In this document: positions 19,067 through 50,499 of the stretch, in pieces | How the letters are laid out: every line of letters begins with the position of its first letter | How positions within the stretch are numbered: the stretch's first letter is position 1 | DNA from: Psammoneis japonica | Taxonomy: Eukaryota | Length of the DNA stretch: 50,499 nt | Direction: 5' to 3' | Assembly (NCBI GenBank): GCA_008632985.1 | Contig: QPGO01000344.1 | Coordinates: 1-50,499, forward strand | Program-made: the position numbers and the translations under genes | Notes under the pieces: generated by a model | Told to the model about the DNA's origin: nothing | Seen by the model: the letters and a program-made list of their open reading frames with translations, nothing else | Databases searched by the model: none

Positions 19067-19242
19067 AACGAGATGGGCACATGCACTCTGTGACCGAGTG
19101 TGCCCTCTCTGACACATGTGTGTTAACTGACACATCAGATGTCCAAGGGACCATCAGAAGGTCCGATCAGTGATCAAGCTGATCGGGTCTCTTCTCAGTT
19201 CCCACACAATTGTCCTTTTTGTCAAGTCATCCCAAGCCAGAT

Positions 19243-19695
19243 TGCCCCATGCAAAAACAGGGTCTGAGTGCTCAGTCACAAAGAGGTTGACAATTCGTGT
19301 GTTACGAAAATTGTGAGATTATTTTAGTTAGAGTGCAAACACGCGATGGTGTCTTTTTCCAAGAAACAAGAATTCTTGTCATGTGACAAGTCATTGGAAA
19401 GACTCAAGCACAAGTCTTTTGCAACACTCATTGACACTCATGCGGAGCCAATTCGCAGGCTCACACTCGGCACTGCGTGCATCCTACGCAGACCCTTTGT
19501 GCAAGGCGAGTCTCTTGCATGATGGCCCAGTCGTGCCGGTCTCGGTTGCATGGAACTCCTGTGGCCCATCGCAGGTCTCGCACTGGGAGTCGCGTTCTCT
19601 TGCCACACGCTTCTGCGGGATCAGCGTCGCTGTGGACAGCCTGCAGACGAAGGAAAGCAGCATCATCGGCGGCTGCGGCAGGGATGCCTGCTGCA
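19243..19695 (-). repeat. 3' LTR of element B
   Basis: Direct repeat of 24861-25311, preceded by a PPT. Confidence 0.88.
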
Positions 19696-19779
19696 CTCGC
19701 CCCTGTGACAAGGTCGCACGAGTGACAGAAGGGTCCCACTGCTGGAAAAAAAGGACATTTTTTGGTGTGTCCAAAAAAC

Positions 19780-20180
19780 CAGCATGCCTTCTCGCACACA
19801 AAGCATGACATTTTCATTGACTTGAACAACTGCAGCTGGCCCTGCATGACAGTTGTCGGTGCCACCATTTGTCCGTTGTTCATGCTCAATTCTCACGCTT
19901 GTCAGTTGAGCGGAACGTTTTCTGATTTCTGTCCGAGACATGCCTTGACTCATTGCAAAAGGCAATGGACAATGTTGCATCACGTCCGAAGACCAACTGC
20001 ATCGGAGTTGCCTTGGTGCAGTTGCACGTGCAGCAAAGGTCACGGCAGAAAGTTTCAATCCAAAGGTCGTCTTCGTCTGGCTCCATGTTTCTTGTGCTCG
20101 GAGCACTGTGTCAAGAACGCACGCATGGCAGTGTCAAGTTTCCAATCGTCTGATGTGCCGTTCCACCATGGAGTTCGACC
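19780..20180 (-). pseudogene. gypsy integrase C-terminal fragment
   Basis: KATPMQLVFGRDA, homologous to the integrase at 46306..47481. Confidence 0.75.
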
Positions 20181-21599
20181 CAGGTAAAAAAAAAGAAAAA
20201 AAGAAAAAAGGTGGTGCATCGACATGCGTGCAGAGTTGATCAGGCTCCACTCTCTGTCATGGCAACACCCCTTCTGTCTTTGACAGGCAATGGACAAAGC
20301 AAAAAAATTTTGCTCACATCACATTCTTTCACCTTCACAGAAAGAACGCATCAAATTCGTATTTGAATGGCGGGCTTTTCGTCATAAAGCTCTTTTTACG
20401 CCAGTTCAGGTTGTTTTTGTCTTTTTCCGGGCATTTTTGTAACTTTTGCAATTTTGCAGCCGAAATTTTTGCTCACATCCTTACATTCGGCGTTGCAAAA
20501 CGGCATTCTTTCTTTCCGTTCATTGAGTTCTTTAAAGTCTGTTAAACCGAATGGTCTGCAGCCCATGAGCGGTCAAGCACTCTCATTTTTTAGAGCACAT
20601 TGACTCTTGCGCGTGTGGCTTGTCACACATTGGGGTGTTCCGTTTCACCCTTCGAGCGTTTCGTCACATGACGTCTCATTCAGCACTTCTTACATAAAAG
20701 TGACATGTGGTAGAGGAGAGCACATGTGTTGTGCTGTACTCCTGTGTGCATGCTTTTCTCGCACAATGGGTTTTTCCGTTCAACCCTTCGAGCGTCACGT
20801 CAATTAACGTCTCGCATCCAAGTGTCAGTGCATGCAGTCATTCTTGCTGCGCGTGATTCTTTGCATGTGCACAGTGGGGCCGGCCCCAGGCCTTTCGTCT
20901 GACACACTGTTCGGCCTTTTTCTTTTTACGCAGCAGCTAGCATCTTTGCTGCTGTGCGGTCATTCTCACATTTAAGTGTCAACAAATGACGTGTGCATGA
21001 TGCAGCGCATGGAATTGTGTGCTGCATGTCCAGTGTGAGCATTGGCTCTAGGCCATTTACAGGCCTTGCAGAAACATTGTGTCTATTCTACGTGACAGAG
21101 ACGTGGAAAAATATGCCACAGACAGTGTCATGAGTCATTTTCTGTTGACACTTTGTCTTGGGCCTTTTGGCACATCTAGCTAAACTGCTGTTCTCGTGTA
21201 GTTTGCAGCACTGCCTTCTTGGCAGTCATCGGTGTCAGTGTGTTTCTCACCGGAATTGAACAAATTTAGAAAGTCCGGAATTCTGCCAACCGCTGACGCG
21301 TTCCGGTGTGGCAAACAGACGTTTTTGCCAACCTCTGGTTGGCAACATTCCGTTGAAACGACTTTTTTTGACTCACTCGAATCAGCGCATTTTGCGTACA
21401 ATCTACGACGCTGTCGAAATCTTCAAGGGAAAATTACCAACCCTCGGTTGGCACCATCTGTCATGGTTCCCTCTTGTCTGCACAAGGCAAACTGACGTCA
21501 GCCCGCCTCCCGCTCCGCGCTCCTCCACACGCTTCTCGTCTCTCGTCTTCATTCACATCGATTTGTTGTTGCTTTTTTTGTTGAAGAGAAAACAATGCC

Positions 21600-22480
21600 G
21601 TGGCAGTGTTGACGATTGCCAATGACAAATCCCAGATGATTGAGGACCTCCTTGCCTGCATGGACAGGGATGACGTTGCTCGAACTGGTGGTGGGTCCAA
21701 AAAGGTGATGAGTTGGAAGATGAGCTTTCTGTGGAGAGGATCTCTCCTGATTCATTGTGTTTCTCCATTTCAAGAACTTTGCAAAGAAAGCAAGCGAAAA
21801 TTACAAAATTCTGCATGCAGACTTGACGGCCGATTTGGACCCAGGTGAATCAGGCAAGAGCCACATGGAGCGTGCAAGGGCAGTGGCAATGAAGCACATT
21901 CTTCATGCCAGTCCAATGTGCCACCCAATTGCATTGGAGAAGCCAACTGTTGCTGTGCACATGGCTCATCTCTGCAAGCTCAGGGACAGCACAACAATGA
22001 ACCTTTGTCTCACAAGTCGTGTGGAGGTCATTGGGCATCACTCGCGCATCCATTCGGGCAGTGCAAGGTTGTTCTGATGGAGCAGTTTAAACAGAAACTC
22101 AAAAAAGCCATGACTGGTTTAAAGAACACAGCTGCTGCAGCCCGCAATGCAGCTGGGGAGGTTTTGGGAGATGGAAAAGCTTCCCTTCCATTCCAGGTGT
22201 GCTGCGCCTTGTGCAAATGGCTGCTTGAAGACGAAAGCATGGGAGCAATGTTCGGGCACTGCTTCCTCATGCTCACTTGGAACCTGATGTGTCGCTCACG
22301 CAACACGGTTCTTGTGCGACTGGAGCACATTGGGTGGGAGGGTGATGCCATGACTGTGCAATTTGCTCACTCCAAGACCGACATGTCGGGAGAACAAGCT
22401 GCGAGGAAACGGCACATGTGCGCTGGCCCATTAAATCCCGGGATTTGTCCAGCTCTGTCCATTGCTCGTTTTCGTGCTGA
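21600..22480 (+). pseudogene. Crypton-like tyrosine recombinase, frameshifted and C-terminally truncated
   Basis: GKASLPF..LCKWL..FGHCFLMLTWNLMCRSRNT..HIGWEGDAMTVQFAHSKTD..RHMCAGPLNPGICP resembles stramenopile Crypton YR proteins. The HxxR and catalytic Tyr region is not seen. Confidence 0.75.
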
Positions 22481-22498
22481 AAGGGCCGCAAAGCCACA

Positions 22499-23645
22499 TT
22501 GTGCAATCTCCGATTTCTATGCAACACATTTGACGAGGCTACGACAACAAAGAAGAAAGATGCAACATCCACAGTTGCTGCGCTCCATGCATCTCCGGCA
22601 ATTCAGAGCATTCTTCAATCGGTTGAAACGACAGCGACCGGGAGAAAAAGGCGCATTGATCAAATTCATTGGCAAACAACAGCCCGTTCGCTTCGAAAAC
22701 TTAAAAAAACTTCTGAGAGTGGCGTCCAGAAACCAAAGAAACGCAAACTGAATGAGCTCTCTGCAGTCGGCTCCACTGCGGAAGTGGTGAAAAAAGAAAC
22801 ACGCAAGCGGAACCTGCTCTCATCATCAAACAAAGCTAGAGGCCGCATCACGGTCAAGGGACCAATTCCGGCATCGGAGCTCGAGTTCGGCACAGCACAA
22901 CTCGATCCGGAAGAGCTCAGTGCCATTGACAACCAAGGAACAATGATCAATGGCTTTTGTACAACCGCACACTTGAACTCATTGGCAAACAAGCACCGTG
23001 ACAGCGGGTGGCGGCGCAGCACGGATGACTTTGTTGGCTCTCCATTGCAAACATTTAATGCATGGCATGGAAGCGGGTTGGACATCATTCTTGAAAAAAC
23101 TGCAAGAACAAGGAAAAGTGGAAACAGATTTTGAGAAAGACAAATTAATCTTCATGCAAGTCTTCCGTGGACCGCACGAAGCTGGCCACTGGGCTTTGTT
23201 GGTTCTTGACCGAACCAGAGCCGGACAGGATCTGTTTGCATTTTTTGACTCGGCACCAAATTTCTACGAACGGTTGCCACTTGACCTGCAGAACATGTTC
23301 GCCACCACGCCTCTCATCAACACCCAAGCCAAGTGGATGAGGGCTCAAACGCCTCGACAAGCAAGGTGTGCAAATGATTGCGGCATGTGGATGTGTTGCA
23401 TTGCGGCGGCTTACACGAAAACTCTGAAGCTCCAAGGGCTCCTGTACGAAGAATCTGAAGAATCTGTTGGAGTGAGAAAGGACACGACGGAAACAGTGAG
23501 TGTCACATCTGTGACACATGCACCTGACATGTCAACAAAGGATTTGGGTCATGTGGGGCGCAAGCACATTTTGGATTGCCTCAAGTGTAACGAGTGCCGA
23601 GAGGAGGTCAACATCGCAGCAGAACTGGCCGTTTCTTTTGATTGA
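22499..23645 (+). pseudogene. Ulp1/C48-like cysteine protease domain (frameshift near 23050-23130)
   Basis: His-Asp-Gln-Cys order: GHWALLVLD, FFDS, PRQ..NDCGMWMC. Confidence 0.75.
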
Positions 23646-24860
23646 CAAGTCTGTAAACTCACCATTCTTCAGGTTCAAAATACCACAAGCTACTGTGTGC
23701 TCGCTTGTGTCATTCTAATCCGTGACTATGACTCACTCTCACATCTCCAGTTTCACAGTGCTGCACGAGACGAATCCGCAATCTCCACGCTTGCTCATGC
23801 AGTGCTGACCTGCATCCTTCACGAGCTTGTTTGCATCGTTCTAACCTGCAAAAAGTGCCAATAGTTTTGCGCTCATGGTGACGCTGTTGCACGCACTTCT
23901 TCCCCGTACACACCAGCAATGATGACAGAAACTGCTCACGGCATCGCCGTCGCACTCATTGCTGGTGCGCACCGGCAATGCTGTCAGCACAGCAATGCAG
24001 CTCTTCCCAAAAGTGGATCACCACAAAAATGCTCCACACCCTTAATTTTCAGCACAATGGAAAAAGATTGACGCAAAACAAAAAAGAAGTGAGAAAACTG
24101 GTGAAAGCGCCACTGAGAATCAAAGTGGCACTCACGCACCTGTCTACCAGCTAAAATCTCACAATCGATTTTTTGGCAAACTTTGGACAAACCACAAATC
24201 CACAATTCTCATTGACACACAATGGGACCAAAACAATCGGACAGATTGTGAAATTGTCGCTAAGAATGAAACAAGAAACTGGAAAATCGGTGAAAGACTT
24301 GTTGAGACATCAAAATGCCTGCGGTGACACCGGCGGCACTCATCATTGTGCTGCGCCGCAGTTTCTTGCGTGGAACTCGAGCAGGAGGTCGTTTGTCTTT
24401 GCGTCTGTTTGAATCGAGATTTTCGGGACAGGTTCCCAACCCATTCTGATGGTCATTTTTGCCAACCGAGCTGTTGGCAAAATTCCATTTGAAATAGAAC
24501 AAGATTCTCAAATCGCTCACGAAACGCGACATCTGCGGTTTTCGTGTCAAGCGCATTGAATCTTGGAGTTCTCATCTCGCACTGACATGCACGAGGTCTG
24601 TTGTTCGACGAGATCAATTTTCTCATCGTTTGGCAGTGCATGCGGCGCATCACTGCCATTGTCAATCGCTGAAAGTTCTGAAAAACACTCGTGCGTGTTC
24701 TTACTGCACGATCACCATTTTGACGATTTTTTGCTTTCTGCTGTCCTCTTGAGGAAACAGTCATGGAGAACAGGAAATGACATTCTGTTGCGTCCCACTC
24801 TTCTCTGCAGAACGGCTTAAATGAAGGGCATTCTTGCACTTGCTGGGAGCAATGTCACCA

Positions 24861-25311
24861 TGCCCCATGCAAAAACAGGGTCTAAGTACTCAGTCACAAA
24901 GAGGTTGATAATCGTGTGTTGTGAAAATTATAAGATCATTTTAGTCAGAGCACAAACACGCGATGGTGTCTTTTTCCAAGAAACAAGAATTCTTGTCATG
25001 CAATGAGTCATTGGAAAGACTTGAGCACAAGTCTTTTGCAACACTTGTTGACACTCATGCGGAGCCAATTTGTGGGCTCATGCTCGGCACTGCGTGCATC
25101 CTACGCAGACCCTTCGTGCAAGGCGAGTCTCTTGCACGATGGCCAGTCGTGCCGGTCTCGGTCGCATGGAACTCCTGCAGCCTGTCGCAGGTCTCGTGCT
25201 GGGAGTCGCGTTCTCTTGCCACGCGCTTCTGCGGGATCAGCATCGCTGCGGACAGCCTGCAGACACAGGAAAGTGGCATCATCGGCGGCTGCGGCAGGGA
25301 TGCCTGCTGCA
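24861..25311 (-). repeat. 5' LTR of element B
   Basis: Followed on - by TGGTGACATTG (PBS-like). Confidence 0.88.
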
Positions 25312-26805
25312 AGATCTTGCATCAAGCTCTGTGTGTCTCGCTGTCATGCATGCACATGCTCTACATAAAACAGTCTTACAATTTTGCTCAACACCAAAAT
25401 CTCTATGACCAAGTGCTTGGACCCCACTTTTGCAATGGACAAAGTCCACATGTGTGAACGTGTGTTGACAACCACACAGTGGTGATGCAAGGGAAAGAGC
25501 ATTGCAGCACAGACCATGACACTGCACCTGCATTTGTTTGCTCAAGGAATTGATTTCAGTCACAATGGTTGACACTTTGCACACTTGCTTTTTGATGACA
25601 AACATGACAATGCCCGCTGTTCAGCAAGGCTCCATTGTTGGAAAATTTTCACCATGGTGGGCCTGCAGTGAAGTGTTGATCGAATTTCTGAAAATGGAAT
25701 TTTGAACTGTTCATGCACCAAATCATGTCACTCATGTAAAAGTCATCATGTAAAGTGTCAATGGTTTCAGGGGAGAAAATGATTCCTTGAAGTGTTGGTG
25801 GAGCGGAGAAGCACGGCACAAGCACGAGAAAAAAATCGGCCCAAACCCTGATTTTCATCTTTTTTTAACGCAAAAATTCTGCGTGATTTTTGTGCCAGTG
25901 CACATGGCTTGCAACAGTGGCACCAATTTCATGACACCAGTCTTTTGACTCCTGCAATGGCATCTGCACAGATGCTCATCTGCTGTTTAGACAGCAGCAA
26001 GGAATTGTTGTTTTTTTCCACCCATTTTCTCTTCAAATTCCATCAGATTGACAGTCTCGCTCATTTTCATTCATTGAGCATTCATCATCATCATTGAGAA
26101 ATGTTCAATGATGCACACATTTGGATCTGTCCAAGGTTTCTCATCACTGGATGTGTCCATTCAATGGATGTCTCATTCAGTCAGGAATTCTCACATTCTA
26201 CGACATTTGAGATTCTGAATTCCCTTCAGTGGATCCTGTCCTGATTGGCAGACAGACCAACCCATCACACTCAGGCTCTGCGGATCTGTGCATGCTCTTG
26301 CACATGTGACACACTCCAACTGCCATGACTGCTGCCCATGTCCACCCCAGACTTCTGGTCTTCTGCAGTTCTGCAAGGTGCACAAGGACAACTGTGAGAG
26401 GAAGCAGTTTGTGATTGTGGTCTGCGTTGGTGTTCAGGGTGCATTTCCCATGTTTGTTCATTTGTCCTTGGCATCTGACAGGGTCATCCCCACTGACATG
26501 AAATGACAAAGGTTCGGGCATCTTGTCCACCTCTGGTTGGCTTGTTGGCAGGTGTTTTTAACCTGTTGCTCCACTTGCAAGTGACCCAAAGTGTCGCCAG
26601 CTGTGGGTTCAGACATGCTGGCAACAACTCTGTGGACCAGGTGGGAAGCTGACACAGTTCAAGATTTCAAGTCAAGTTTCAAGTTAATTCAAGCCCAACC
26701 TTCAGCTCAAGTTCCAACACACTCCTTTCCGTTGCACCATGGTTCTCACCAGACAGCAACAAACTGACAGCTTTGAGCACATTTTGGGCACTGTTCTGGC
26801 CCAAG

Positions 26806-29800
26806 TGCAGCATGCCTCGCCACTGGACAACACGGCGAGACCATGCATGAGCCTCTTGCATGTGGCAATGCAGTGTTGTTAACATGCACCTGGGAAGCAC
26901 GACCACAGGAGGGCGTGGCTCTAGGTCTCAGGCAATCCCAGAAGGATGCCAAGAGAGCATCCGTGTGAAGCACACTGGCCCGTCGTCTGGCCCACGATGG
27001 CAGCGTGATTCCACACGATGACATCACTCATGCATGGCGCGTGATGGCTTGATTTGCACGATCCACAATGCGAGCGCACGATCGATTTGACACGATCCAA
27101 ACGCGAACGAACAGGGATTTAGCAAGATTCCCTGTTCGCATGATCCCATTTTCTCTGCTCTAAACTAGCTCACAATTTTCACAATGACAAAGTCGCAACA
27201 CATCTTCTTTTTCAGCACCCAGTGCACACATGGGGCACAGTGATGTTGATCCCGCATGTTGTGTGAGGTGACGAAATCTGCAGAAACGAAACTACGAAAT
27301 GTTGGCAGGACCGACAAATCTCAAAATGACCATGAAGAAGCACCATGAGTCCTCATTTGATGGGACATCAGGAGAATGGAAGGGAGAACCCCACCACATC
27401 CAACTCAAGGAGGGTGTAGAACCATGCCACGCTCGTCCGCACAAAGTGCCTCATGCGTGCGAAGCTGTGCCACGCAAAGAAGTGGAACGCCTGGCGTGCA
27501 TCGGTGTTCTCAAACGCATCAACCGATCCCAATGGGCAGCTCCATCATTTGTCACACCGAAGAAAGACTTAACGGCATGCTTCATCAATGATTTCAGAGA
27601 GCTGAGTGAACAGATCAAGCGATTGCCTCATCCGATTCCTGAGTGTCAATGTGCCGCAGGGCAATTGGTGCTTGTCAAACAGGAACAATCCTCTAAATGC
27701 GGTTCTGACAGCTGTGCAGGACCCGCCAGAGTTGTCCGTGCACATGACAACGGCACGTTGCGCATCCAGAACGGAGCGCTGATGGATGCGTGCAATCTAC
27801 GGCAGATTGTGCCCTGTCACCAGCAAGACATTCTGATCATGGGGGAGTGCACAGCATGCCTCGCCACTGGACAACACGGCGAGACCGTGCATGAGCCTCT
27901 TGTGCGTGGCAACGCAGTGTTGTTAACACGCACCTGGGAAGCACGACCACAGGAGGGCATGGCTCTAGATGATAAATGATGGAGCTGCCCATTGGGATCG
28001 GTTGACGCGTTTGAGAACACCGACACGTGCCAGGCGTTCTACTTCTTTACGTAGCGTAGCTTCGTACGCACGAGGTACTTTATACGGACGAGCGTGGTAT
28101 GGTTCTACACCCTCCTTGAGTTGGGTGTGGTAGGGTTCTCCCTTCCATTCTCCTAATGTCCCATCAAATAAGGACTCATGGCGTTTCAATAGTGCCAAAA
28201 GGTCGTTTTGTTGAACTGTAGAAAGTTTTATTGCCCCTCGCGTTATGTCCTCGAGGCAGGCCGGCGCGTACTTAGCGTCTAAAATACGTGAAATCCGGTC
28301 GGTTTCCGAAGATAAGTGTTCTGGATCTTGAAGATAGAAGGAGGTTTCCACCGTAGCATCTACGTGCCTCATTGGTACTTCTCCATTGACTAATGGCCAC
28401 TCTATCATCTGTTTAGAGAAGACAATATCAATGCCTTGTGTCTCCAGAATGTCACGTCCAACAATCATATCGTACTTGCCCAACTTTCCGTTGTGTACGT
28501 GGATGGTATGTTTAAGTTCTGCAGTTTCGGATAATTCTGGTAACCAAAATTTAACGGTACAGTCGTTAGACGTACTGAACGAGCCTGCTACCGTAGTCCA
28601 GTTTGTCTCAGCCGTTGAACGGCTTCGCAGACGCTTACAGTATCGACTATCGAGTAGAGTGCTGCTGGCGCCACTATCTAGTAGTGCCTTAATGGTTTGA
28701 GTCTTGCCCTTGCCATGTTTAGTGTTCATAGCCACAAACAAGATTGGAGTAAGATGAGTCTTTTTAACTCGTTTACGGGATTGGCCTACAACACGTGTAC
28801 GATGGTAATTCAGTTGTTCATTCACACATTCATCCAATGCATTAAAACTGCCTGCATTGTGTCGGCCCCCTTCTCAGGCGTCCGAATCTTCGGAATCACT
28901 TAAGTCGAGGTCGCGGAAGTGATTGAGCTCCTCCTCGCGTGCCTTGCGCTTTTTCTGAGCGTTGGCAAAGAACTCCTTGACCTTCGGTCCGATGAGAGCA
29001 TTGATGTCTTCCTCATTCCGAGCTTTTTTGTCAGGCTTGCTGCCTCCGTCATTGGAATGTGCAGTCTTGACACGTTTCACGTGGTGCTTGAGCTGACGGC
29101 AATCCTCCGTATGATGTCCACAGTCAGTCCCATGTGGCATGCACGACTTCTGGGTGTTCCGTTGGTTTGTGATCAACGACTCAGGATTGTCCGTTGTGCA
29201 TCCCCGCTTGCGTGGAACCTCAGCATGTTGGTCCAGGTCACCTTCGGCAAGCTCGACCTGCTCGATGCGCTCGCAGAACTGCACAAATTCGGCAATGGCA
29301 TGCGCCAACGGGTCAAAATTCTGCAACGTCATGAACTTCTGCCACGCGTTCAGCACACCGCACTCGAACATGTCGCACAGTTCGTCATTGGGTGATGGTG
29401 CCGGTGCTTCTCCATCCTCCGTCACGGGTGGAAACTGAGAGACACAGCCGTTAATTTCAACAGCCCTCTCAATGCAGTCATGAGTGGAAACCTCTGCGGG
29501 CTTGCGCATGAAGCGCCTCAGACAATGCTTCTGCAATGGTGCCGCCCTGTGTGGGAAGACACTTTCCTTTAGCTTCGCGACGCACACTGCGTGCGCAGCG
29601 TTGGTTTCGGATGCCTGCGTGTTAGCGGCATTGTTGAATGACGTCAGAGCATCGCCCTGTAGCAGGTCACGCATGAGGGCAAATTTCACTGGCCCGGTCG
29701 TCATGTTTTGTCCTTCGTGCACGCAATCCACGTTGCGTGGAAAGATCAGGAGTGTCTCGCATGTAGCCGCAGAAAGGCACGGGATGCCCATCTCGTGCAT

Positions 29801-30207
29801 TGGACTGTCCGGATCAGCAGGGTTGTTGTGCAGTTTGAACGTCTGGCACTCGCCCTGCTGTGGCTCTTTCTTCTCCGGCCGTGCGAACGGAATCGGCGGC
29901 TTGGTCCGCTTCTTCATCCCAAGAGAGCATCCGTGTGAAGCACACTGGCCCGTCATCTGGCCCACGATGGCAGCGTGATTCCACATGATGACATCACTCA
30001 TGCGTGGTGCGTGATGGCTTGATTCGCACGATCCACAATGCGAACGCACGATCGATTTGATGCGATCCAAATGCGAACGAATGGGAGTTTGGCAAGATTC
30101 CCCATTCGCACGATCCCATTTTCTCTACTCTAAACTAGCTCACAATTTTCACAACGACAAAGTCGCAACACATCTTCTTTTTCAGCGCCCAGTGCATGCA
30201 CAGGGCA
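26806..30207 (+). mobile_element. gypsy C copy 1, internally rearranged, 4-bp TSD CAAG
   Basis: LTR at 26806-27237, RT and integrase fragments at 27340-27830, PPT GGGGGAG, and a 3' LTR split into ~27850-27970 and ~29919-30207. CAAG at 26802-26805 and 30208-30211. Confidence 0.82.
27970..29918 (-). pseudogene. gag-pol: gypsy C gag, protease and RT start, inverted inside the 3' LTR
   Basis: ORFs 28874..30070 (Gag, knuckle CMPHGTDCGHHTEDC) and 27965..28837 (ALLDSGAS...WAAPSFII), homologous to 48850-50113. Confidence 0.88.
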
Positions 30208-40607: not shown

Positions 40608-41577
40608 GTCCCAAAAGGGGACAAACCGAATGGGTTTGCCGCACAGGTGCGGCTTTTCCCACCCCCAAAATGAAAGCACTGCAACAGGGCAGCATCAGGT
40701 TGCATTTGTCTGTCGATCTGGCCCAAGCGGAGCTAGTGTCAGTTCGAGGGGACTGAACAAATGCTGATGTGCTGTCACGAACACAGGCAGTTTACATGCT
40801 GTTGGCGATTGGTCCACTGTCGCTTGTTCAGTGGCCCCAGCAGCGTAACATCGCACAATTCTAGAACCTGTTGATGCTGTTCAACACTCTGTCTTGTCTC
40901 ACACCCAATTCTTGGCCATCATGGTAGCATTCATTCACTTCAAAGGTTGATTGCACTCACATTTTCTTCTCTCTTTTTGCGGTTGGGGTTTGTTTCCAGA
41001 GTCCAGAGGGTTCTGGTTCCGAGTGCAGCTGCTCCACTGCTGAGAGAGTGGCACCGCATCATCGACCACTCTGGTTTTTGGCAAAACAGATGTCTGGACA
41101 GTTGCATCCATCAGCAGCCCGTAAGTGCAAGCTTCATTTTCCTTTTTCTGTCACATTGGACGTGTTGCTCACTTTTAACTTTGTCACATGTTGCTCATGT
41201 TTGGGAAAGGTTGAAGTGCCCCTTGTCATCCATTGGGCACCCCAGACAATCAAAAGAAGGAATGCATCATTCTGAGATTTGGCTGAGTGGTGCAGCGAAG
41301 CGATCAGTTGTGCAAATGCAGGCACAGCACCAGCGTGGGCAGAGCAGGAGATCTTGCTGTGCAACAGAAATGCAGCAGCACAACAATTTGACAATGTGGC
41401 CAAGAGGTCTCATGCACTCACTCCTTTGACCAGACTCACTTCATCTAAAGTTAAATGGCAATGGATGAGCATGGAACAAAAAGCCTTTGAAAATGTGAAG
41501 CGAACCATGTCAAAAGATGTGTCATTGTCACACCCAAATTATGACGAACCCTTTGAGATGTGTGCCAATGCGAGTGA

Positions 41578-44500
41578 CCTTACCTCCGCACATACAATGA
41601 TGACACAAATGTTGACATTTCCTCCGCAGACAGGTCTGACAGCAGGCCTGGCACTCAACCATTGCCTTGCTCCTCCCACAAGACTTTGGGCCACTGTGAA
41701 GCTCCGGCTGGAACGCAAAAGATTCACTGCAAGGCCTCAAAGAAGAAGAGTGATGATGTGGCCTTGTTTCTTTGCTCATGCCCATTAGATCGTCACAAAG
41801 CATGGACCCATTGCTTCACGTGCTGCTTGGCAGCAATGACTTGCACCCTTCCGAACACCCATTTTCTCCCCAAAGAACTGTCAGAGATCCAGAGGAAGGC
41901 CATGCGTGCAATCTTTGCGAAATGTGGACACAATCGTAACATGAAACAAGATGTCTCATTTGGCCCACATTCCCTTGGAGGTGGTGGTTTCTGGTCCATG
42001 GATGTCGAACAAGGAGTCAGCCAAGTCATGCAGTTCATGTCTCACTGGAGAGGTGTTGGTCAGCCACATGCTCTTTCATGGATCGCAGCATCTTGGGTTC
42101 AGTTCCATCTGGGTGCCGGTGTCAGCTTTTTGAAGGATGTGCACTCCCGTCCACCACATTCTGAGTCGAAATGGTTCAGTTCACTTAGATCCTTCCTCTC
42201 CCACATCAATGCTTCCTTCAACCCAGACGAACCTGGAGTCCTTCCACTTCAACGTGATGATGATCAATGTCTCATGGACATGGCACTTGACTCAAGACTT
42301 TTCTCTGACAAAGAGGTCAAATGGGTCAACTGCTGTCACCCATTTCTCAACGTCCTCACAGTTTCGGATGTCACCTCACCCGACGGCAGAGCACTTGACA
42401 AGCACAAGTTCCACGGACACACCTCAGTTCTCAGTGGCATTTCAACATTGAACCAAGTTGAACAGGCAGCCCCATCTGCTAGAGCATGGAAAACAATGGC
42501 AACGTGCCTGCAGGTTGTTGTGCAAGAATGACAATTTAGAACTTCAAGGCCCCCTTGGCTCTTGGGCAATTCCAGCGACGGAGATGTGCATGACCTTTCC
42601 AGCATGCCACGAACCCAATGAAGATTGTTTGCATGTAAAGACGTGTTCCAGTCCCAGGTGACGCACAAAACGACAATTTATTTTGAATGTAATTTATGTA
42701 TCTTTTAGTGTATGTAGCATTTTCATATAAAATACTTAGACGGATTGACTTTTATAGACCTCTAGAGTATGAACATTTAAATATTTTTTTGAGGGGTATT
42801 CAAGTCCTAATGGGATATGTATCATAAACTTCCTCAGTAGACTCAATACTGATTGTACGTCAGTAGATTTATACTGAGATTTCTTTGTAGGTAGAAAACC
42901 TACCAAGTAGCATCGTAGAAAGATATATTTAGGTAACATCCAAATAACGGCAATATTTTCGCCGAAAATCATCCGTTGTGTTACGAATCTTTTAACGCAA
43001 TGAAAAACATAGATAGCACAATAACAATGATATTGCAACACTCACACGAGTCTTGTTAGTGTTGCAAAACATTTATATTTGTATAAATCTATACTTTTGG
43101 TGGTGAAAGTTCGATCGTAAGTTAGGGACCGCGCAAAAATCGCGCAAATGTCGTTTTTGTGCACGATTTGGTTCACGTGCGGCTGGAACACGTCTAAAGT
43201 CGGACACGGGGTTTCAGGTTTTCCCCATTTCTCATGGCTCCGCCCAATCTGTCGATCCTCTCAAGGTTGCACCTGATCTGTCTCCGAGGGCTTCTCCAGC
43301 AATGGCAGATGCCAGTCGAGATGGCCGGTGGCATGTCAGACACACTGGTTCTTCATTCGACCTGCCTCCCACCATGCTGGTTCCTTCAGACTTTCAAGCT
43401 TGGCTGTCATCATTGCTGCAATGGGAGTCATTCCTCTTTGCCAACGTGCACCTGCACGCACCTGTCTTTGAGATTGCACACTGCTTGCAGATGTGCCGGT
43501 CAACAGCTGGCAGCGATGGGTCCGTCATCGGAAAATGCAGCAACTTTCGGCTGGACTCTCACCATCAACAGTGTGGCACTGGCCAACTGCACTGGTCCAG
43601 TGTTCGGTTTTTGCCTGACTTCTCACAGAGCGGAAGCATGTGGGGCACTGTCACATCTGCGATTCTTAATTTGGGTGATGGAATGTTGTTTTACAAGCTG
43701 TCCTCTGGGAAGCGACCTGTGCTGCGATAACTCAGCCATCGTTTGCCGCGTGTCAAAGTTTGAGGCACCGTTGTCAAGCTCCCCTGTTCAGGAATCAGAC
43801 TCTGCATTGCTCGACTTTCACCGCAGAAGTCACACAGCGAACACCACATCTACCGATTGGGATGTTGCCAATGAAATTTACTTGTCAATGGAAGAGATGT
43901 CTACATCATCCACTGAGAACACTCCATGCACTTCCGTCTCTGTTCAGTGGATTAAAGGACACCAGGATTCTAATGCTCCATATGAGACACTTTCTCTACC
44001 TGCTAAAGTGAACATCCGGGCTGACAAGATCACTGGACAACATCACGGAAAGTTCCAGGGCAACACCCTGCTCGTGCCGCGAATGCCTCGTTGTTCCGCG
44101 AATCTGGTCTTAAACAATTCCACAGTGGGATCCAAGTTTAAGCAGGTGATGCGATACGAAGCATCTCGCCCGGCACTTGTTCCACACATGAAAGAGAAAT
44201 GCTCATGGACAGAAGAAGTGTTTCAGTCTATAGATTGGGCTTCTCACTCCAAACTCATGTCGAGGAACATCAGACGAAAGATCAGCACGGTCAAATTGGT
44301 GCAAGATTTGCTTCCTGCCAACAAGACAGCGCATCAGTGCAACCCAAATCGCCCAGACGCTTGCACACATTGCTCACACCCAATGGAGGATCGTGATCAC
44401 ATTTTAAAATGTCCTCATGACGAGTCATGGTGCAGCATCTTCCTTCAAGGCCTGCGCAAGAAATGTGATGACATCTGCACTTCCCCTCCCTTGCGTGATC

Positions 44501-45200
44501 TTCTCTTGGAAGCCCTTGAAGCTTGGTTTTGTGATCAAATGGCATTTCTGGAGGACTTGCACCACAGTGTTACATCGGTGTTCTACTCCCAGGATCTGAC
44601 AGGATGGAGGCAAATTTTTAATGGCAGATTTGCCGTCCAATGGAATGCTGCTCACGCTTCGCACCTCAGGAACATGGACCTTCCTTCTGATGTGGAGGAG
44701 AACATCTGGAGATTGGATTGGTCAGCTGCCATGGGAAGCTTCATTTGGTCTCAATGGTGGGAGCCATGGGATCAACATGATGATGCAGTGCATGGTCACG
44801 ATGCGGAGACGAGGAAATCAGCCCAACGGAGAGATGCAGAGGCGGAAGTCAAGGTCATTTGCTCCAGATCAAGCGAACATCTTGCAAAGGACAGGTCTGC
44901 CTTGTTCGACTTGGTGGAAGAACACTCAACTCATTCTGCTCACAGATTGCAAAATTGGTTGGAAATGGTGAGACCCATGTTTAAATCCAGCATCAAGGAG
45001 GCGAAACGGCTCGCAGTGAGGGGCACTCATGCTGTCACTGGTTGCTTCAGTGCGGCATCACCTGAGGGTGATGCTGACACAGGCTGATTGCCACATGCCC
45101 CTGCCGCACACATGTGCACTGGGGGTGTGGGTTAGCTTGTTGCCGGAGTTGCTGGGCGGAAGTGCAACAGCACCTTAAAAACAGACGTTGGGTTTTGTTT
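41578..45200 (+). mobile_element. 5'-truncated non-LTR retrotransposon (post-RT region, RNase H, CCHC finger), ~19-bp TSD, (GTTTT)n-like tail
   Basis: TGTGTGCCAATGCGAGTGA at 41559-41577 and 45201-45219. Motifs FGPHSLGGGGF, SDGS, SHRAEACGALS, WIKGHQD and CTHC..EDRDHILKC. Confidence 0.88.
42640..43194. mobile_element. MITE / non-autonomous DNA transposon, 12-bp TIR GACGTGTTCCAG, TSD TAAA
   Basis: Perfect TIRs, with TAAA at 42636-42639 and 43195-43198. Sub-terminal inverted GCACAAAACGACA and an AT-rich interior. It interrupts the LINE ORF. Confidence 0.88.
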
Positions 45201-46020
45201 TGTGTGCCAATGCGAGTGATGCTCAATTGGGGGCAGTTGCAACTCAGAACAACCAACCCATTGCTTTCTGCAGTCACAAGTTAAATCCAGCACAGATGTG
45301 CTGCACTGCAATGGAAAAAGAACTCTTGTCCACAGTTGAGACACTTAAAGAATTCCGGAACATCCTGTTTGGCCAACAGATTAAGATGCGTGCAGATCAC
45401 AAGAATCTCACTCATAAAAATTTCACAATGGACAGAGTCATGCATTGGCAACTGATGACAGAAGAATGCAGTCCCAAAACAACCCACCTTGAGGGCAGGG
45501 CAAACGTCATTGCAGACACAATTGGCCGACTTGCTGTGAAAGAAACACCACCTGTGGAAACCTTCAGCACTGAAGATTTGGCTGAAAAGGTTGCTCCTAG
45601 ATCCTGCAACAATGTTTTTCTGTTAACACACAAAGTTCTTGACACTGAACAAAAACAGGATAAAGGCATTCTCTCCAAATTGTCCAATGAGACATTTTGT
45701 GCAAAGACTTTTTGTGGAGGCGAGCGAGACCAGTTGCTCACATGTCAAAAGGACAAAATCGTTGTTCCAAAGACGTTACAAAAAGTGGTGACAGATTGGT
45801 GCCATGTGCATCTTCTGCACCCAGGCACAAACAGGACTGAAGAAACAATCTCACAACACCTGTGGTGGTCCACCATGCGTGAAGACATGTGAAAATGCGT
45901 GTCGAAGTGTGAGACATGCCAAAAATTCAAGAAGAAACCAAAGAAACATGGGCGTTTGCCTCCTGAATGCATGGAAACCATGCCATGGGAATGACCATGT
46001 GTGGATCTCAATGGACCATG

Positions 46021-46452
46021 TGCCCCATGCATGCACCAGGCGCTGAAAAAGAAGATGTGTTACGACTTGGTCGTTGTGAAAATTGTGAGCTAGTTTAGAG
46101 CAGAGAAAATGGGATCGTGCGAATGGGGGATCTTGCCAAATCCCCATTCGTTCGCATTTGGATCGCATCAAATCGATCGTGCGTTCGCATTGTGGATCGT
46201 GCGAATCAAGCCATCACATGCCATGCACGAGTGATGTCATCGTGTGGAATCACGCCACCATCGTTGGCCAGACGACGGGCTAGTGTGCTTCACACGGATG
46301 CTCTCTTAGCATCCTTCTGGAATTGCCTGAGATCTAGAGCCACGCCTTCCTGTGGTCGTGCTTCCCAGGTGCGTGTTGACAATGCTGCGTTGCCACGTGC
46401 AAGAGGCTTGTGCACGGTCTCGCTGTGTTGTCCAGCAGCGAGGCATGCTGCA
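46021..46452 (-). repeat. gypsy C LTR (~432 bp, ends uncertain by 2 bp)
   Basis: Homologous to 26806-27237 and preceded by PPT ATGGGGGAG. Confidence 0.88.
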
Positions 46453-49400
46453 CACTCCCCCATGATCAGGGCCGTCAAGTGACAGAATGTCCCACTGGTG
46501 ACAGGGCACAATCTGCCGTAGATTGTACGCACCCATCAGCGCTCCATTCTGGGTGCGCAACGTGCCGTTGTCACACACACGGACAACTCTGGCGGGTCCT
46601 GCACAGCTGTCAGAACCGCATTTAGAGGATTGTTCCTGTTTGACAAGTGCCAATTGCCCTGCGGCATGTTGATGCTCCTTGCGTTTCTGATTTTCACGCT
46701 TGTCATTTAAGTGGACAAGCTTCTGCTTTCTGGTTTCCATGCACTTCCACTTGGCACGATGGGCAACAGATGAAACTGCATCGCGTCCAAAGACCAATTG
46801 CATGGGGCTTGCACGCGTGGTCGTGTGTGCCGCAGCTCCAATGGCGAAGGCTGCTGCGGAGAGGATGCCACTCCATGGGTCATCTTCATCCAGTTCCACA
46901 TCCTGCACTGAAAAGGAACGTACCATGTCACCAAGTGTCTGGTGCACACGCTCCACTGTGGCATTCGCCTGTGGATTTCGCTCACTCATGGGTTTCTTCA
47001 AATTCCCACAGTCATTTTTAATCATCTGGCTAAATTCTGCCATAAATTCTGTCCCACGGTCATGAACTGCCTGGGTTGGCCACGGATGTCTGCATGGCCA
47101 CGTTTGTTCAACGACGTTTGCTATGATGTCTGCGCGTTTCGTAGACACTTCTTTAATCTCAAACCACCCGGTTGCTGGGTCGATCATTGTGACTGCCCAC
47201 AATTGCAGAGTGTCCTTTCCGCGTCTTTGAATTTTACATGGCCCTGTCATGTCTGTGCACAGAGTCTCCCATGGAATTATCTCAGCGACCTTTTCTGGCA
47301 GCTTCCCATGACGCTGCATTCGGCGTTTTGTCTTCTGACATTGATTGCACTTAACGCACGTAGAATGCACCGTAGACCTCACACTGGGCCAGCAGAAGTG
47401 CTGGGCAACAGACATTTCCGTGCGTGTCTCACCTGGATGACACAGTGTCTCGTGGCACCATTCAGTTAGCGGAACCTGCAATGACTGTGGTGCTGCGATT
47501 TTGTCCTTATGACAGATTAACTGTCATGATGACCCTCCCCCACGATGCGCGTGAATGGAGTAGTCGGACGAGTCCTCAGCTCGGGAAAGTAGGCGCTTGT
47601 CCTTTTGTTGTTCTTTTTGAATGCGCTTGAAGCTAACAGGCAGAGAGACATCGTCTTGCGCGTCTGCATTAAAAGCTTCATGCAAAGGATGACTCGATGG
47701 AGTGTCTTTTACATCCGGATTGGCCTCGGAAGGCAAGCTGGGTGCTAGCCGAAGGCGACTAAGAGCGTCAGCGACTAGGTTATGGGTACCCTTAACATAG
47801 CGTAATTCGGGACCGTATTCTTCGCATATTAACCGCCAGCGCATAACGCACTCGGTATTGAATACTTTGTACGTAAGATTTTTATGATCAGTATATACAA
47901 TTATACGATGACCAAGGAGAATCGTTCGAAATTCTTTCAACGTCTCCACAATGGCGAGTAATTCTCTCTGCGTTGTTGTATAATTTAATTGCGCACTATT
48001 AAGCTTTCTGCTATAAAAGGCGATAGGTTTATCATCTTGGGATATAACTGCTCCCAATTGATATTTAGAGGCATCGGTAGGTATCACAAAGGGTTTATTA
48101 AAATCAGGATGTGATAATAAAACATCATCCGATATTACCCGTTTAACGGTTTCGAACGCCTCGTCTTCAACGGACGTCCACTCCCACTTAACAGTCTCGC
48201 TTACGAGTCGTGTTAGCGGAGCCAAGACTTCAGGACGTCTAATCCACGTGTCGCGGCAGTAGTTCACCATACCAATAAATGACCGTAGGTCGCGTTTATT
48301 GGTTGGGGTCGCGATTCGCTTAATGGCGTCGACTTTATTAGGTATTGGTCGTATTCCGTCTCTGTTAACCAGATAACCCAAGTGTTTTAATTGGGTTTGA
48401 CAGAAGTGAAGTGAGATTTAGTTGCGTTAACTTTTAGTCCTGCTTTCTGGACCCTCAATAAAACTTCTTCAAGTTTGTTGAGGTGATCTTCATAGGTGCC
48501 TTTCGTCACGACGAGAAGGTCATCTAAGTACGTTCGAACGAACGATAGATCTTCAAATAAGCCTGACATGCGTTCTTGGAAAATGTCTGGCGAATTACAT
48601 AACCCCATGGGCAATACCTGCATCTCATACTTGCCCCACGGGAAGATGAGCGTGCAGAGCTTCTTGCTATCAGCATCCAATCGGATATGATAATAGCCCA
48701 TATTTAAATCCAGAGATGTAGCCCACATAAAGCCTTCGAGCTTAAGGAGCATATCTTGGATATGAGGAATCGGATAAGGCAATCGCTTGATCCGTTTATT
48801 CAGCTCTCTGAAATCATTAATAAAGCGTACCGTTAAGTCTTTCTTCGGTATGATAAATGATGGAGCTGCCCATTGGGATCGGTTAACGCGTTTGAGAACA
48901 CCGATACGTACTAGGCGTTCTACTTCTTTACGTAGCGTAGCTTCGTATGCACGAGGTACTTTATACGGACGAGCGTGGTGTGGTTCTACACCCTCCTTGA
49001 GTTGGATGTGGTAGGGTTCTCCCTTCCATTCTCCTAATGTCCCATCAAATAAGGACTCATAGCGTTTCAATAGTGCCAAAAGGTCGTTTTGTTGAACTGT
49101 AGAAAGTTTTATTGCCTCTCGCGTTATGTCCTCGAGGCAGGCCGGCGCGTACTTATTGTCTAAAATACGTGAAATCCGGTCGGTTTCCGAAGATAAGGCT
49201 TCTGGATCTTGAAGATAGAAGGAGGTTTCCACTGTAGCATGTACGTGCCTCATTGGTACTTCTCCATTGACTAATGGCCACTCTATCATCTGTTTAGAGA
49301 AGACAATGTCAATGCCTTGTGTCTCCAGAATGTCACGTCCAATAATCATATCGTACTTGCCCAACTTTCCGTTGTGTACGTGGACGGTATGTTTAAGTTC

Positions 49401-50113
49401 TGCAGTTTCCGATAATTCTGGTAACCGAAATTTAACGGTACAGTCGTTGGACGTACTGAATGAGCCTGCTACCGTAGTCCAGTTTGTCTCAGCCGTTGAA
49501 CGGCTTCGCAGACGCTTACAGTGTCGACTATCGAGTAGAGCACTGCTGGCGCCACTGTCTACTAGCAGCAGTGCCTTAATGGTTTGAGTCTTGCCCTTGC
49601 CATGTTTAGTGTTCACAGCCACAAACAAGATTGGAGCAAGGTGAGTCTTTTTAACTCGTTTGCGGGATTGGCCTGCAACACGTGTACGATGGTAATTCAG
49701 TTGTTCATTTGTACATTCATCTGATGCATTGAAGCTGCCTGCGTCGTGTCGGCCCCCTTCTGAAGCGTCCGAATCTTCGGAATCACTTAAGTTGAGGTCG
49801 CGGAAGTGATTGAGCTCTTCCTCGCGTGCCTTGCACTTTTTCTGAGCATTGGCAAAGAACTCCTCGACCTTCGATTCGATGAGAGCATTGATGTCTTCCT
49901 CACTCCGAGGTTTTTTGTCAGGCTTGCTGCCTCCGTTGTTGGAATGTCCAGTCTTGACACGTTTCAGTTGGTTCGTGATCAATGACTCAGGATTGTCCGT
50001 TGCACATCCCCACTTGCGTGGAACCTCAGTGTGTCGGTCCAGGTTGCCTTCGGTGAGCTCGACCTGCTCGATGCGCTCGCAGAACTGCACAAATTCGGCG
50101 ATGGCATGCGCCA
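46021..50113 (-). mobile_element. gypsy C copy 2 (gag C-terminus, protease, RT, RNase H, integrase, PPT, 3' LTR); 5' end lost
   Basis: ORFs 48387..50090 (VDSGAS, SLDLNMGYYHI, YLDD), 47524..48381 (TDASKYQLGAVISQ) and 46306..47481 (integrase). A 5-bp duplication at ~48403-48413 shifts the frame. Confidence 0.93.
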
Positions 50114-50499
50114 GGCCTGTTCCAGCTCCAGGTGCTCCGCGTGGGTTCGATTCCCATCATTGGCCCATTTTTAGGTTTAGCGCAAACAACTTTTTCAAAA
50201 TCCGTTTTTTGCCAAATCGAAGGGCAAGTGTACACTTTACATGTGTTTTCGGGTGCACACTCACCTTTTGATTTTTGAAATGATCAAAAATGAAGGAGTT
50301 GATTGTGCCAAATGTGATTTTCGGCTGGTGTCCCATTCTACGTGAAAAATGCTCGTGATCACTCACTTTTTCATTTTTCGGAGCTCGTGTGTTTGGTCTT
50401 CTTCAACTCAACTGACGTCCGAACATGCCTCATTTCTGCAGACACAAACAGTTAATTTGATTGAGCGCGCCAAAAAAATGTGTCCTCTCGACTTGCCAT

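Follow-up and report, generated by a model that had tools for sequence, protein, structure and literature searches.

A dead gypsy-type element with a TpA-normal core

Every recognisable gene in the window, by which we mean the whole stretch of 50,499 nucleotides that was analysed, is of retroelement origin, and a host gene for comparison is absent from it. The element considered here (copy 2, Table 1) is a dead retrotransposon of the Ty3/gypsy type that lies amid other dead retroelements. Its Pfam domains are arranged on the minus strand as PR, RT, RNase H and IN, which is the Ty3/gypsy (Metaviridae-type) order, with scores of 3.3e-24 for RVT_1, 5.8e-32 for RT_RNaseH_2 and 4.9e-11 for Integrase_H2C2, and homologues of its proteins carry PF00078, PF17919, PF17917, PF17921 and PF00665. 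The protease scores under the Pfam cut-off (20.5 vs 20.7 bits, in copy 1 of the same family), and its D-S-G codons are nevertheless present. The best homologues in the protein collection are 65% identical for RT-RNase H and 62% identical for IN, and no close relative of the family above 65% identity was found in that collection.

As for the outer limits of the element, similarity to copy 1 stops at 50113 and the 3' end adjoins another gypsy fragment at about 46019-46021. No LTRs were recognised, as no direct repeat surrounds copy 2 within the window, which stops 386 bp past the end of homology. Searches for a tRNA or primer-binding site at 50114-50165 returned 0 genes with ARAGORN and 0 matches with Rfam. 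By eye, the bases upstream of gag resemble the complement of the 3' half of a tRNA.

Table 1. Features of copy 2, its relatives and other parts of the window
Feature	Position	Strand	Basis or remark
Copy 2, Ty3/gypsy-type retroelement (order gag, PR, RT, RNase H, IN)	46019..50113	-	Pfam
Unconverted island: PR, RT, RNase H	47746..49577	-	Segmentation, permutation, Pfam spans
PR D-S-G codons	49551-49559	-	Read from sequence
RT in island	about 48405-48851	-	Pfam span
RNase H in island	about 47815-48180	-	Pfam span
Frame shift inside RT, overlap of two long ORFs (48387-50156, 47524-48417)	48387..48417	-	ORFs, sequence
Converted gag-like part	49578..50113	-	TA counts, site states, Tyr content
Graded transition zone, gag side	49522-49730	-	Site-by-site states
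Converted integrase ORF	46306..47523	-	ORF, Pfam
Zinc-binding domain of integrase ORF	about 47320-47490	-	Pfam
In-frame TGA ahead of integrase ORF	47521-47523	-	Sequence
Converted 3' non-coding region of copy 2 (repeated at 26946-27239 and 29921-30209)	46019..46305	-	Self-alignment
Copy 1, gag to first part of RT, inside copy X, truncated at 27969/27970	27970..29307	-	Alignment, junctions
Copy X, rearranged, converted throughout	26805..27969, resumes 29921-30209	+	Self-alignment
Copy X pieces: IN C-terminal end + 3' region; PR-RT fragment; IN C-terminal fragment	PR-RT 27337-27640; IN 27646-27969	+	
Element Z, another family	19243..25311	-	LTRs 19243-19695 and 24861-25311, TG..CA termini
4-bp target duplication AGAT of Z	19239-19242 and 25312-25315		
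PBS-like bases of Z, starting TGG	beside LTR at 24861		
Third TpA-normal patch, non-coding, single copy in window	42680..43110	.	GC 0.24-0.38
Imperfect inverted repeats around third patch	42639-42678 / 43146-43195		

Across the window TpA observed/expected is 0.22 and CpA+TpG stands at about 1.6; only 7 of 100 bins reach a TpA value of at least 0.6. In copy 2, the four 500-bp bins from 47501 to 49500 hold 33-40 TA each, with observed/expected of 0.88-1.05, and the value is 0.40 at 47001-47500, likewise 0.40 at 49501-50000, and 0.19-0.22 at 46001-47000. Maximum-likelihood segmentation with two boundaries, scanning 45001-50499, delimited the island given in Table 1, in which TA accounts for 146 of 348 TA+CA+TG steps vs 52 of 767 in the rest of the scanned region (LLR 94.7, or 93.7 on a coarser grid; the maximum over 200 label shuffles was 11.0). 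This bears out the first-pass annotation, which had placed a stretch of normal TpA and Tyr at about 47700-49570, and the five Tyr motifs quoted there (MGYYHI, GKYEM, TYLDD, SKYQ, AFYS) all lie between 48010 and 48701 on the minus strand. The flanks had been described as nearly free of Tyr, and they are, with a single Tyr in the 406 residues of the integrase ORF (against 20 Cys and 17 His) and one in 193 aa of the gag part, vs 13/396 and 9/224 aa in the island; the change on the integrase side, however, falls at about 47746 and not below 47500. In the converted part of gag, TA counts per 100 bp run 4, 2, 0, 0, 0.

The borders of the island match domain borders, namely the start of PR and the end of RNase H, and its GC is lower (0.44-0.45). 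TpA observed/expected is close to 1 throughout the island and is not restricted to functionally important residues. The core had also been called intact, a description that cannot be kept, given the frame shift inside RT and the replacement of 3 of 11 consensus Tyr in the island by His or Cys. Elsewhere in the window, a gypsy element at 15658-18924 and a copia element at 2661-5735 are TA-poor throughout, and a spared core was seen in none of the other retroelements of the window. Besides the islands, TpA is normal in just one stretch, the third patch of Table 1 (42680-43110), to which no annotation could be given.

Direction, timing and context of the TpA change

The sequence of the window has been altered by a process in which TA gives way to TG or CA, an A-to-G change on one strand or the other. 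The flanks represent the derived state and the island the original one, as had been proposed, because of the consensus-Tyr columns and a converted third copy of the segment. At 13 integrase columns in which Tyr is the commonest residue among 50 homologues, copy 2 has Cys in 7, His in 3, Ala in 2 and Tyr in 1, and in the island Tyr is retained in 8 of the 11 such columns. The third copy, copy X, differs from copy 2 at 36 positions in PR-RT, of which 22 are TA to CA/TG with the TA always in copy 2; the others are 1 CA|TG site (2 bases), 8 CpG-type changes, 4 other transitions and 0 transversions. Since copy X has lost 22 of the 24 TA of copy 2 in 48765-49068 and retains only 2, the core is convertible. 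The products in copy X are 15 TG and 7 CA, the 50 events that could be polarised gave 31 TG and 19 CA, and CA and TG counts are similar in the integrase part. As both products occur in copy X, in the integrase Tyr columns and among the polarised events, both strands are affected.

The LTR pair of element Z places the change relative to integration. Reverse transcription, in its standard mechanism, leaves the two LTRs of an element identical when it integrates; those of Z now differ, over 451 positions, at 11 CA|TG sites, 8 sites with TA in one LTR and a converted state in the other, 9 CpG-type sites and 1 other. Because these differences lie mainly at TA-derived sites, conversion must have taken place in situ after integration. 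The pair yields a per-TA rate of about 1500 times background (at least 270 times by the Poisson upper bound), so that the process is a chromosomal one that acts after integration and, for each TA site, outpaces ordinary substitution roughly a thousand-fold. Pfam searches with 35 minus-strand ORFs of Z returned nothing above the cut-off.

Age alone was considered as a sufficient cause of the contrast and rejected, in that the Z LTRs, with 1/451 background differences, are 81% converted vs 13-18% for the island, with 8/860 between copies 1 and 2. The two background counts show no significant difference (p=0.18), and as the divergence of the island is not below that of the heavily converted LTRs, the island is not simply young.

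CpG decay co-varies with TpA conversion. Across bins, TpA and CpG observed/expected are correlated with rho=0.64, and with rho=0.56 when the islands are removed. Between copies 1 and 2, differing CpG sites number 11/33 in gag vs 6/51 in the island (p=0.025), and the comparison of copy X with copy 2 gives 7 CpG lost in X and 1 in copy 2. Loss of TA is also ranked by neighbouring bases, in the order ATAT, ATAC > ATAG, GTAC, ATAA > CTAC > TTAA, GTAA, CTAA, CTAG, with TAG among the triplets least depleted, a preference that is read from retention ratios only and for which the baseline in other families is assumed. A strand-specific test of the 3' neighbour (top-only vs bottom-only context by TG/CA product) gave 7:2 vs 7:7, which is not a significant difference (p=0.23).

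Island edges in two copies and how the mosaic may have arisen

The island is carried by two copies, one of them truncated. Copy 1, which is 94.2% identical to copy 2 over 48850-49978, is unconverted from 27970 to about 28822 and converted beyond. Its gag-side switch is sharp and falls between 28806 and 28823 (49693/49710 of copy 2), whereas the edge in copy 2 is gradual: converted sites rise from 3 of about 47 to 7 of 14 and from there to almost every site. The first-pass annotation had the protease-side boundary at about the same element position in both copies, and this holds approximately, to within about 190 bp. At the truncated RT edge of copy 1, extra conversion extends over only about 60 bp adjoining the converted copy X (4 sites, 28003-28031).

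In gag, copies 1 and 2 have 7 discordant CA|TG sites and a matched CA+TG density of 11.9-14.7 per 100 bp, near the unconverted baseline of 8.6-11.4, which indicates that gag was converted independently in the two copies. A mosaic inherited from one ancestor is disfavoured by the same observations; gag conversions shared by the two copies are estimated at 0, give or take about 7 sites, which leaves room for partial inheritance. Background divergence between the copies is 8/860 (0.93%) in the island and 9/412 (2.2%) in gag (p=0.11). A higher background divergence of gag had been suggested by a first count of 14/412, was reduced to the present figure with a single global alignment, and was dropped as not significant. 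The two islands are set apart by 9 and 12 private conversions, by background differences private to each, and by an indel of 6 bp. Local copy number, which had been offered as a possible cause, finds no support within the window, which contains three occurrences of the spared PR-RT piece and one of the converted integrase segment 46672-47745.

With roughly an even chance of its being right as a whole, we favour the view that editing is targeted to regions and has yet to arrive at the core. The editor would be recruited regionally, probably by a silencing state or its guides, which would also drive CpG decay, and would start at the periphery of a copy and move towards its middle. This would explain why, for the youngest family in the window, gag, integrase and the 3' region are saturated, having lost more than 90% of their sensitive TA sites, and why the TA loss of the PR-RT-RNase H middle so far amounts to only some 13-18%. 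The island would on this view be a core that editing has not reached or can enter less easily, rather than a protected functional gene. Among the causes put forward earlier, spreading from the ends or a dependence on chromatin fits best, because the edge in copy 2 is graded, CpG decay co-varies, and conversion of gag, independent in the two copies, stops at almost the same place in both. Against this explanation it may be noted that the other retroelements at 15658-18924 and 2661-5735 lack a spared core, that spread from neighbours is asymmetrical at the RT edge of copy 1 (if that junction did not arise by a later deletion), that island edges at domain edges would equally suit modular recombination, and that background divergence tends to be lower in the island (0.93% vs 2.2%, p=0.11).

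More doubtfully, it is possible that the silencing state responsible for CpG methylation aims a TpA editor with a precision of 100-200 bp, and that in new gypsy copies this editor reproducibly covers gag, integrase and ends and skips PR-RT-RNase H.

It is rather unlikely, although deserving of weight, that old converted copies instead received a fresh PR-RT-RNase H segment through gene conversion or template switching with an active element, so that the island would be younger and not spared. Gag exceeds the island in TA conversion, in CpG-type changes (11/33 vs 6/51) and in other changes (9/412 vs 8/860), the edge in copy 1 is sharp and the island ends on domain borders, as such an exchange would predict. 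However, for other changes the two parts do not differ significantly (p=0.11), so that this count decides neither for nor against refreshment of the core by gene conversion, which had also been proposed, and the contrast in TA (per site, 0.14-0.19 hits for the island vs about 2.5 for copy X) far exceeds the approximately 2.4-3-fold contrast of the other classes. The largely independent conversion of gag makes a single recombinant ancestor unlikely, and two separate events would need ends within about 190 bp of each other; moreover, the edge in copy 2 is graded without a step, and the 8 background sites at which the islands of copies 1 and 2 differ argue against recent copying from one donor. 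The graded edge likewise speaks against a chimera of converted and unconverted copies produced in assembly or polishing. Such an artefact might be expected of so repetitive a region (53 self-matches), yet one ORF of 589 aa crosses the gag-side edge, at the other edge RNase H and IN are in the same frame, and the private conversions, private background differences and 6-bp indel imply that neither island is a generic consensus; we regard it as improbable.

Editing before integration, ADAR-like on RNA or APOBEC-like on single-stranded cDNA with an exposure gradient repeated in each copy, would give a common edge position in independent copies, and APOBEC3G is reported to produce gradients in HIV-1 through position-dependent exposure. 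ADARs prefer a 3' G, the opposite of what is seen here, where TAG is among the least depleted triplets. The products are nearly symmetrical between strands, whereas editing of one strand gives one outcome; the Z LTRs diverged by conversion after integration; and a course that is high in gag, low in the core and high in IN is non-monotonic. We consider editing at that stage highly improbable, even though ADARs favour a 5' U according to the main text of one preprint (bioRxiv 10.64898/2026.01.13.699255). It is just as hard to credit that purifying selection has kept TA in a useful enzymatic core, or that the island itself has been mutated from CpA to TpA by a fungal-type RIP. The island does span exactly the catalytic PR-RT-RNase H domains and has the lower GC; nonetheless, the core is frame-shifted and has already lost consensus Tyr, its TpA is near expectation at all positions, and the same segment is converted in copy X, all contrary to selection, and the conserved Tyr columns show the flanks to be derived, the reverse of RIP.

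Relation to known hypermutation systems

Fungal RIP changes C to T at CpA, creates TpA and depends on duplication. Like the process in the window, it kills repeated or mobile DNA in place by dinucleotide-specific transitions and can affect copies unevenly. In the window, however, TpA is destroyed and the derived state is TpA-poor and rich in CpA/TpG, and the segment present three times is the spared one. APOBEC3 enzymes deaminate C to U on minus-strand cDNA before integration, with a one-stranded (G-to-A) and position-dependent effect along retroelements. They share with the window a deaminase-type hypermutation of retroelements whose intensity varies with element position; the changes in the window are A-to-G on both strands and follow integration. 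For the targeting step, an analogy, and only that, may be drawn with systems that modify the outer parts of a unit and spare its middle, with graded edges.

The process in the window bears the signature of the TpA hypermutation of Bigelowiella natans, a match by signature only. In B. natans, integrated foreign DNA is hypermutated from TpA to TpG/CpA, arising de novo in lines (Mettrop et al., bioRxiv 10.64898/2026.01.13.699255, 2026), and our literature search found this signature in that preprint only. Its main text gives 230 of 231 changes in two viral inserts as TpA to TpG/CpA, reports that low-TpA CDS are enriched in RT/DDE domains, and names an ADAT2-type DNA adenine deaminase as the candidate enzyme, without proof; the window does not contain the gene for that candidate. 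In both cases TpA alone is affected and becomes TpG or CpA according to strand, the rate exceeds background by a factor of the order of 1000, and RT-bearing sequences are among those depleted; the window lies beyond both B. natans cluster cut-offs, 0.43 for TpA and 1.52 for CpA+TpG. The preprint concerns giant-virus and virophage inserts, low-TpA CDS and 1-kb windows, and its main text contains no within-element mosaic, neighbour-base preference, LTR-pair evidence or CpG link, and mentions methylation in a general way only. What is new here is the in-place change after integration, the convertible core, the independent conversion of gag, the link to CpG and the dependence on context.

So far a single 2026 preprint has described a hypermutation of foreign DNA that is specific to TpA and raises GC, and the window adds LTR pairs as an internal clock of post-integration action, a ranking of neighbour bases that any candidate deaminase must reproduce, and a tie of TpA loss to CpG decay. 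Should the organism be other than B. natans, it would be a second lineage with the process. Half-converted copies with definable edges are natural material for finding the recruiting signal. If editing is indeed aimed by a CpG-methylating silencing state, the island would be the footprint of a guide system (e.g. small RNAs from outer element parts only) or of a protected chromatin domain, the context ranking would be the enzyme's own preference, and mosaic copies would map the recruitment sites of a eukaryotic DNA adenine-editing defence.

The altered state and its direction

The window is littered with dead retroelements (see table), and its observed/expected ratios over the whole length are 0.22 for TpA, 1.62 for CpA, 1.56 for TpG, and 0.58 for CpG. 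TpA reaches at least 0.6 of expectation in only seven of 100 bins of 500 bp (28001-29000, 42501-43000, and 47501-49500). Long stop-to-stop ORFs (≥150 aa) are plentiful on both strands and in overlapping frames, with at least 73 among the ORFs listed for the whole window. They result from the erasure of TAA and TAG and are not evidence of genes.

In copy 2, a dead Ty3/gypsy-type retrotransposon copy, a two-boundary likelihood scan over 45001-50499 placed an island of normal TpA at 47746-49577, where TA makes up 146 of 348 TA+CA+TG steps inside versus 52 of 767 outside. The log-likelihood gain was 94.7, or 93.7 on the coarser grid of the shuffling test, in which 200 shuffles reached 11.0 at most. 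Tyr accounts for 13/396 and 9/224 residues in the two island ORF parts, versus 1/406 in the integrase and 1/193 in gag; the average of 50 integrase homologues is 3.7%. All five Tyr motifs quoted for this core in the first-pass annotation were found. Its description of the core as intact has to be given up, as there is a frame shift within 48387-48417 and three of 11 consensus-Tyr columns in the island are now His or Cys.

Features of the window (RT, reverse transcriptase; PR, protease)
Feature	Position	Strand	Remarks
Copy 2, gag-like part	50113 down to ~49578	-	
Copy 2, protease D-S-G codons	49551-49559	-	
Copy 2, RVT_1	~48405-48851	-	
Copy 2, RNase H	~47815-48180	-	
Copy 2, in-frame TGA	47521-47523	-	
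Copy 2, integrase ORF	46306-47523	-	with H2C2 zinc domain
Copy 2, 3' non-coding stretch	down to ~46019	-	abuts another gypsy fragment there
Copy 1 (truncated, same family)	27970-29307	-	94% identical to 48850-49978
Copy X (rearranged, same family)	26805-27969 plus 29921-30209		includes 304-bp PR-RT fragment at 27337-27640
Element Z (LTR element, another family)	19243-25311	-	direct repeats of 453 and 451 bp, TG start, CA end
Other gypsy-type RT/RNase H/integrase fragments	15658-18924, 41402-41575, 45194-46021		
Copia-type RT	2661-5735 and 38899-39843		
TpA-normal patch	42680-43110		non-coding, AT-rich (GC 0.24-0.38); single-copy in window; edges sharp to ~50 bp

When the copy 2 integrase ORF was aligned with 50 of 120 listed homologues (610 at E≤0.001; best listed homologue 62% identical), the 13 columns with Tyr as the commonest residue read Cys (TGY) in seven cases, His (CAT) in three, Ala in two, and Tyr in one. 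An alignment of the RT-RNase H part to 29 of 120 listed homologues has 11 consensus-Tyr columns within the island, and Tyr was kept in 8 of them. The PR-RT fragment of X differs from copy 2 at 36 bases, and 22 of these are TA in copy 2 and CA (7) or TG (15) in X; the rest comprise one CA versus TG site (2 bases), eight CpG-type differences, four other transitions, and no transversions. Therefore, the flanks are the altered state and the change is from TA to TG or CA, on either strand. Only two of 24 TA sites of copy 2 survive in X, and thus the core segment is not intrinsically immune.

Directly upstream of the copy 2 gag, 50114-50165 adjoins the point where homology to copy 1 stops. By eye, its minus strand resembles the complement of a tRNA 3' half with TGG as first bases, a putative likeness for which neither ARAGORN nor Rfam returned a tRNA signal.

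Conversion acts in place

Element Z carries AGAT directly outside both ends (a target duplication), and a TGG-starting PBS-like stretch adjoins its repeat at 24861, as expected for a minus-strand element. Because of the way reverse transcription works, the two LTRs of an element start out identical when it integrates. The Z pair now differs at 11 CA versus TG sites, eight sites with TA left in one LTR, nine CpG-type sites, and one other site in 451 bp. Assuming independence, ~32 ancestral TA sites were present and 81% were converted per LTR, a per-TA-site rate ~1500 times background (at least 270 times by the Poisson upper bound). Given this divergence and the near-equal TG and CA products, the main source cannot have been pre-integration editing of RNA or cDNA. 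No Pfam domain was recognisable in 35 minus-strand ORFs of element Z, and similarity to integrase is limited to one weak tblastn match at 19889-20158. The element is possibly non-autonomous or too decayed. Its TpA is 0.35 of expectation at 20501-21500, somewhat above the rest.

TA loss depends on the neighbouring bases. Length-normalised retention elsewhere relative to the islands, a ranking that presumes similar starting compositions, rises from ATAT (0.006), ATAC (0.015), ATAG (0.042), GTAC (0.048), and ATAA (0.054) through CTAC (0.134), TTAA (0.21), GTAA (0.22), and CTAA (0.26) to CTAG (0.36); for triplets, it is 0.04 for TAT, 0.09 for TAC, 0.17 for TAA, and 0.19 for TAG. In copy 2, TA in sensitive and resistant contexts survives at a ratio of 5/18 in 46019-47500 versus 87/58 in the island (p=0.001). 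That the edited strand is the one with the favourable 3' neighbour was not confirmed on 50 polarised events (7:2 versus 7:7, p=0.23).

CpG decay accompanies conversion. CpG sites differ between copies 1 and 2 at 11/33 in gag versus 6/51 in the island (p=0.025), the PR-RT segment has lost seven CpG in X and one in copy 2, and TpA and CpG ratios are correlated over 500-bp bins (rho=0.64; 0.56 without the seven island bins). This link could come from a common silencing state, or simply from common age. The families at 13001-19000 and 30501-33500, with CpG at 0.10-0.30 and TpA at 0-0.16 of expectation, lie much below the family of copies 1, 2, and X in both and include stretches of strong GC skew (e.g., +0.48 at 14001-15000 and about -0.2 at 30001-33000); these elements are probably older.

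Possible reasons for the unconverted core

Copy 1 lies inside X at a junction lacking 24 bp of X, and is therefore not a canonical insertion. Over 858 aligned dinucleotide steps of the island shared with copy 2, 49 are TA in both copies, 17 are converted in one, and two are converted differently in both; of ~68 TA, copy 1 lost nine and copy 2 lost 12. In gag, CA is aligned with TG at seven sites, and matched CA+TG steps have densities (11.9 and 14.7 per 100 bp) near the unconverted level of 8.6-11.4. Most gag conversions thus occurred independently in the two copies, with shared conversions estimated at 0 (uncertainty ~7). The claim that the gag-side edges coincide holds to within ~190 bp. The copy 1 edge is sharp, between 28806 and 28823 (copy 2 49693/49710), whereas the copy 2 edge is gradual. 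Where copy 1 keeps TA, copy 2 is converted at 3 of ~47 sites below 49520, at 7 of 14 in 49522-49693, and at nearly all beyond; the transition zone itself retains two unconverted sites in sensitive contexts.

We infer that conversion would be targeted regionally, moving inward from the outer parts of the element. The family, as the youngest of the window (its CpG is still at 0.7-1.3 of expectation), may thus have been caught half way. Regional targeting has, in our judgement, an even chance of explaining the island. Against it, no other retroelement family of the window has a spared core, conversion from the converted X into copy 1 covers only ~60 bp (four sites at 28003-28031), and the island edges match domain borders, where PR starts and RNase H ends. 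The same edges also suit modular recombination, by which the island would have been refreshed. Outside TA and CpG sites, copies 1 and 2 differ at 8/860 positions in the island and 9/412 in gag (p=0.11); for other pairs of the family the figure is 1.2-1.7%. The Z LTRs, 81% of whose TA sites are converted, are at 1/451, and the island does not fall below them (p=0.18). Time alone therefore fails to explain why each TA site took 0.14-0.19 hits in the island and ~2.5 in the same segment of X. The divergence between copies 1 and 2 may predate their insertion, which leaves room for a recent refresh of the islands by two distinct unconverted donors, though we consider recombinational refresh unlikely. 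An assembly artefact is more improbable again, and selection and fungal-type RIP, like editing before integration, are contradicted by the data of this analysis.

Several other arrangements were observed. The X segment 27337-27554 and the start of copy 1 (27970-28187) form an inverted repeat whose arms are 89% identical and separated by 415 bp. One of them is converted, the other mostly unconverted; five of nine copy 1 conversions lie in its arm (5/17 sites in the first 218 bp versus 4/51 beyond, p=0.04). The patch at 42680-43110 is bracketed by imperfect inverted repeats (42639-42678/43146-43195) within a 3.6-kb insert (~41576-45193) that interrupts another gypsy copy, separating its RT from its RNase H; the patch may represent host DNA, a recent insertion, or a protected loop. 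Around the copia-type RT at 38899-39843, a second short pair of direct repeats, putative LTRs of 181 bp (34929-35109/40760-40940; 94.5% identical), differ almost entirely in the TA/CA/TG manner (two discordant, five half-converted, one CpG-type, and no other sites).

Relation to the known process

Searches of the literature turned up one source for the TpA signature, a 2026 preprint on Bigelowiella natans (10.64898/2026.01.13.699255). Of 231 de novo changes that its mutation-accumulation lines showed in two integrated viral regions, 230 were A-to-G or T-to-C, every one of these at TpA, and the rate was ~1000 times that of the genome; reverse-transcriptase and DDE domains were overrepresented among low-TpA coding sequences, and a candidate ADAT2-like deaminase was put forward as a proposal. 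The process itself is already in print, and the copy 2 locus is, by its signature, another target. In the main text of the preprint, terms for retrotransposons, neighbour-base context, and clustering of hits are absent and methylation appears in general remarks only. Neither under these terms nor in its abstract, Results, and Discussion were the within-element mosaic, LTR-pair evidence, CpG link, and context ranking found. The finding is valuable because it offers a handle on targeting; it is not a new system.
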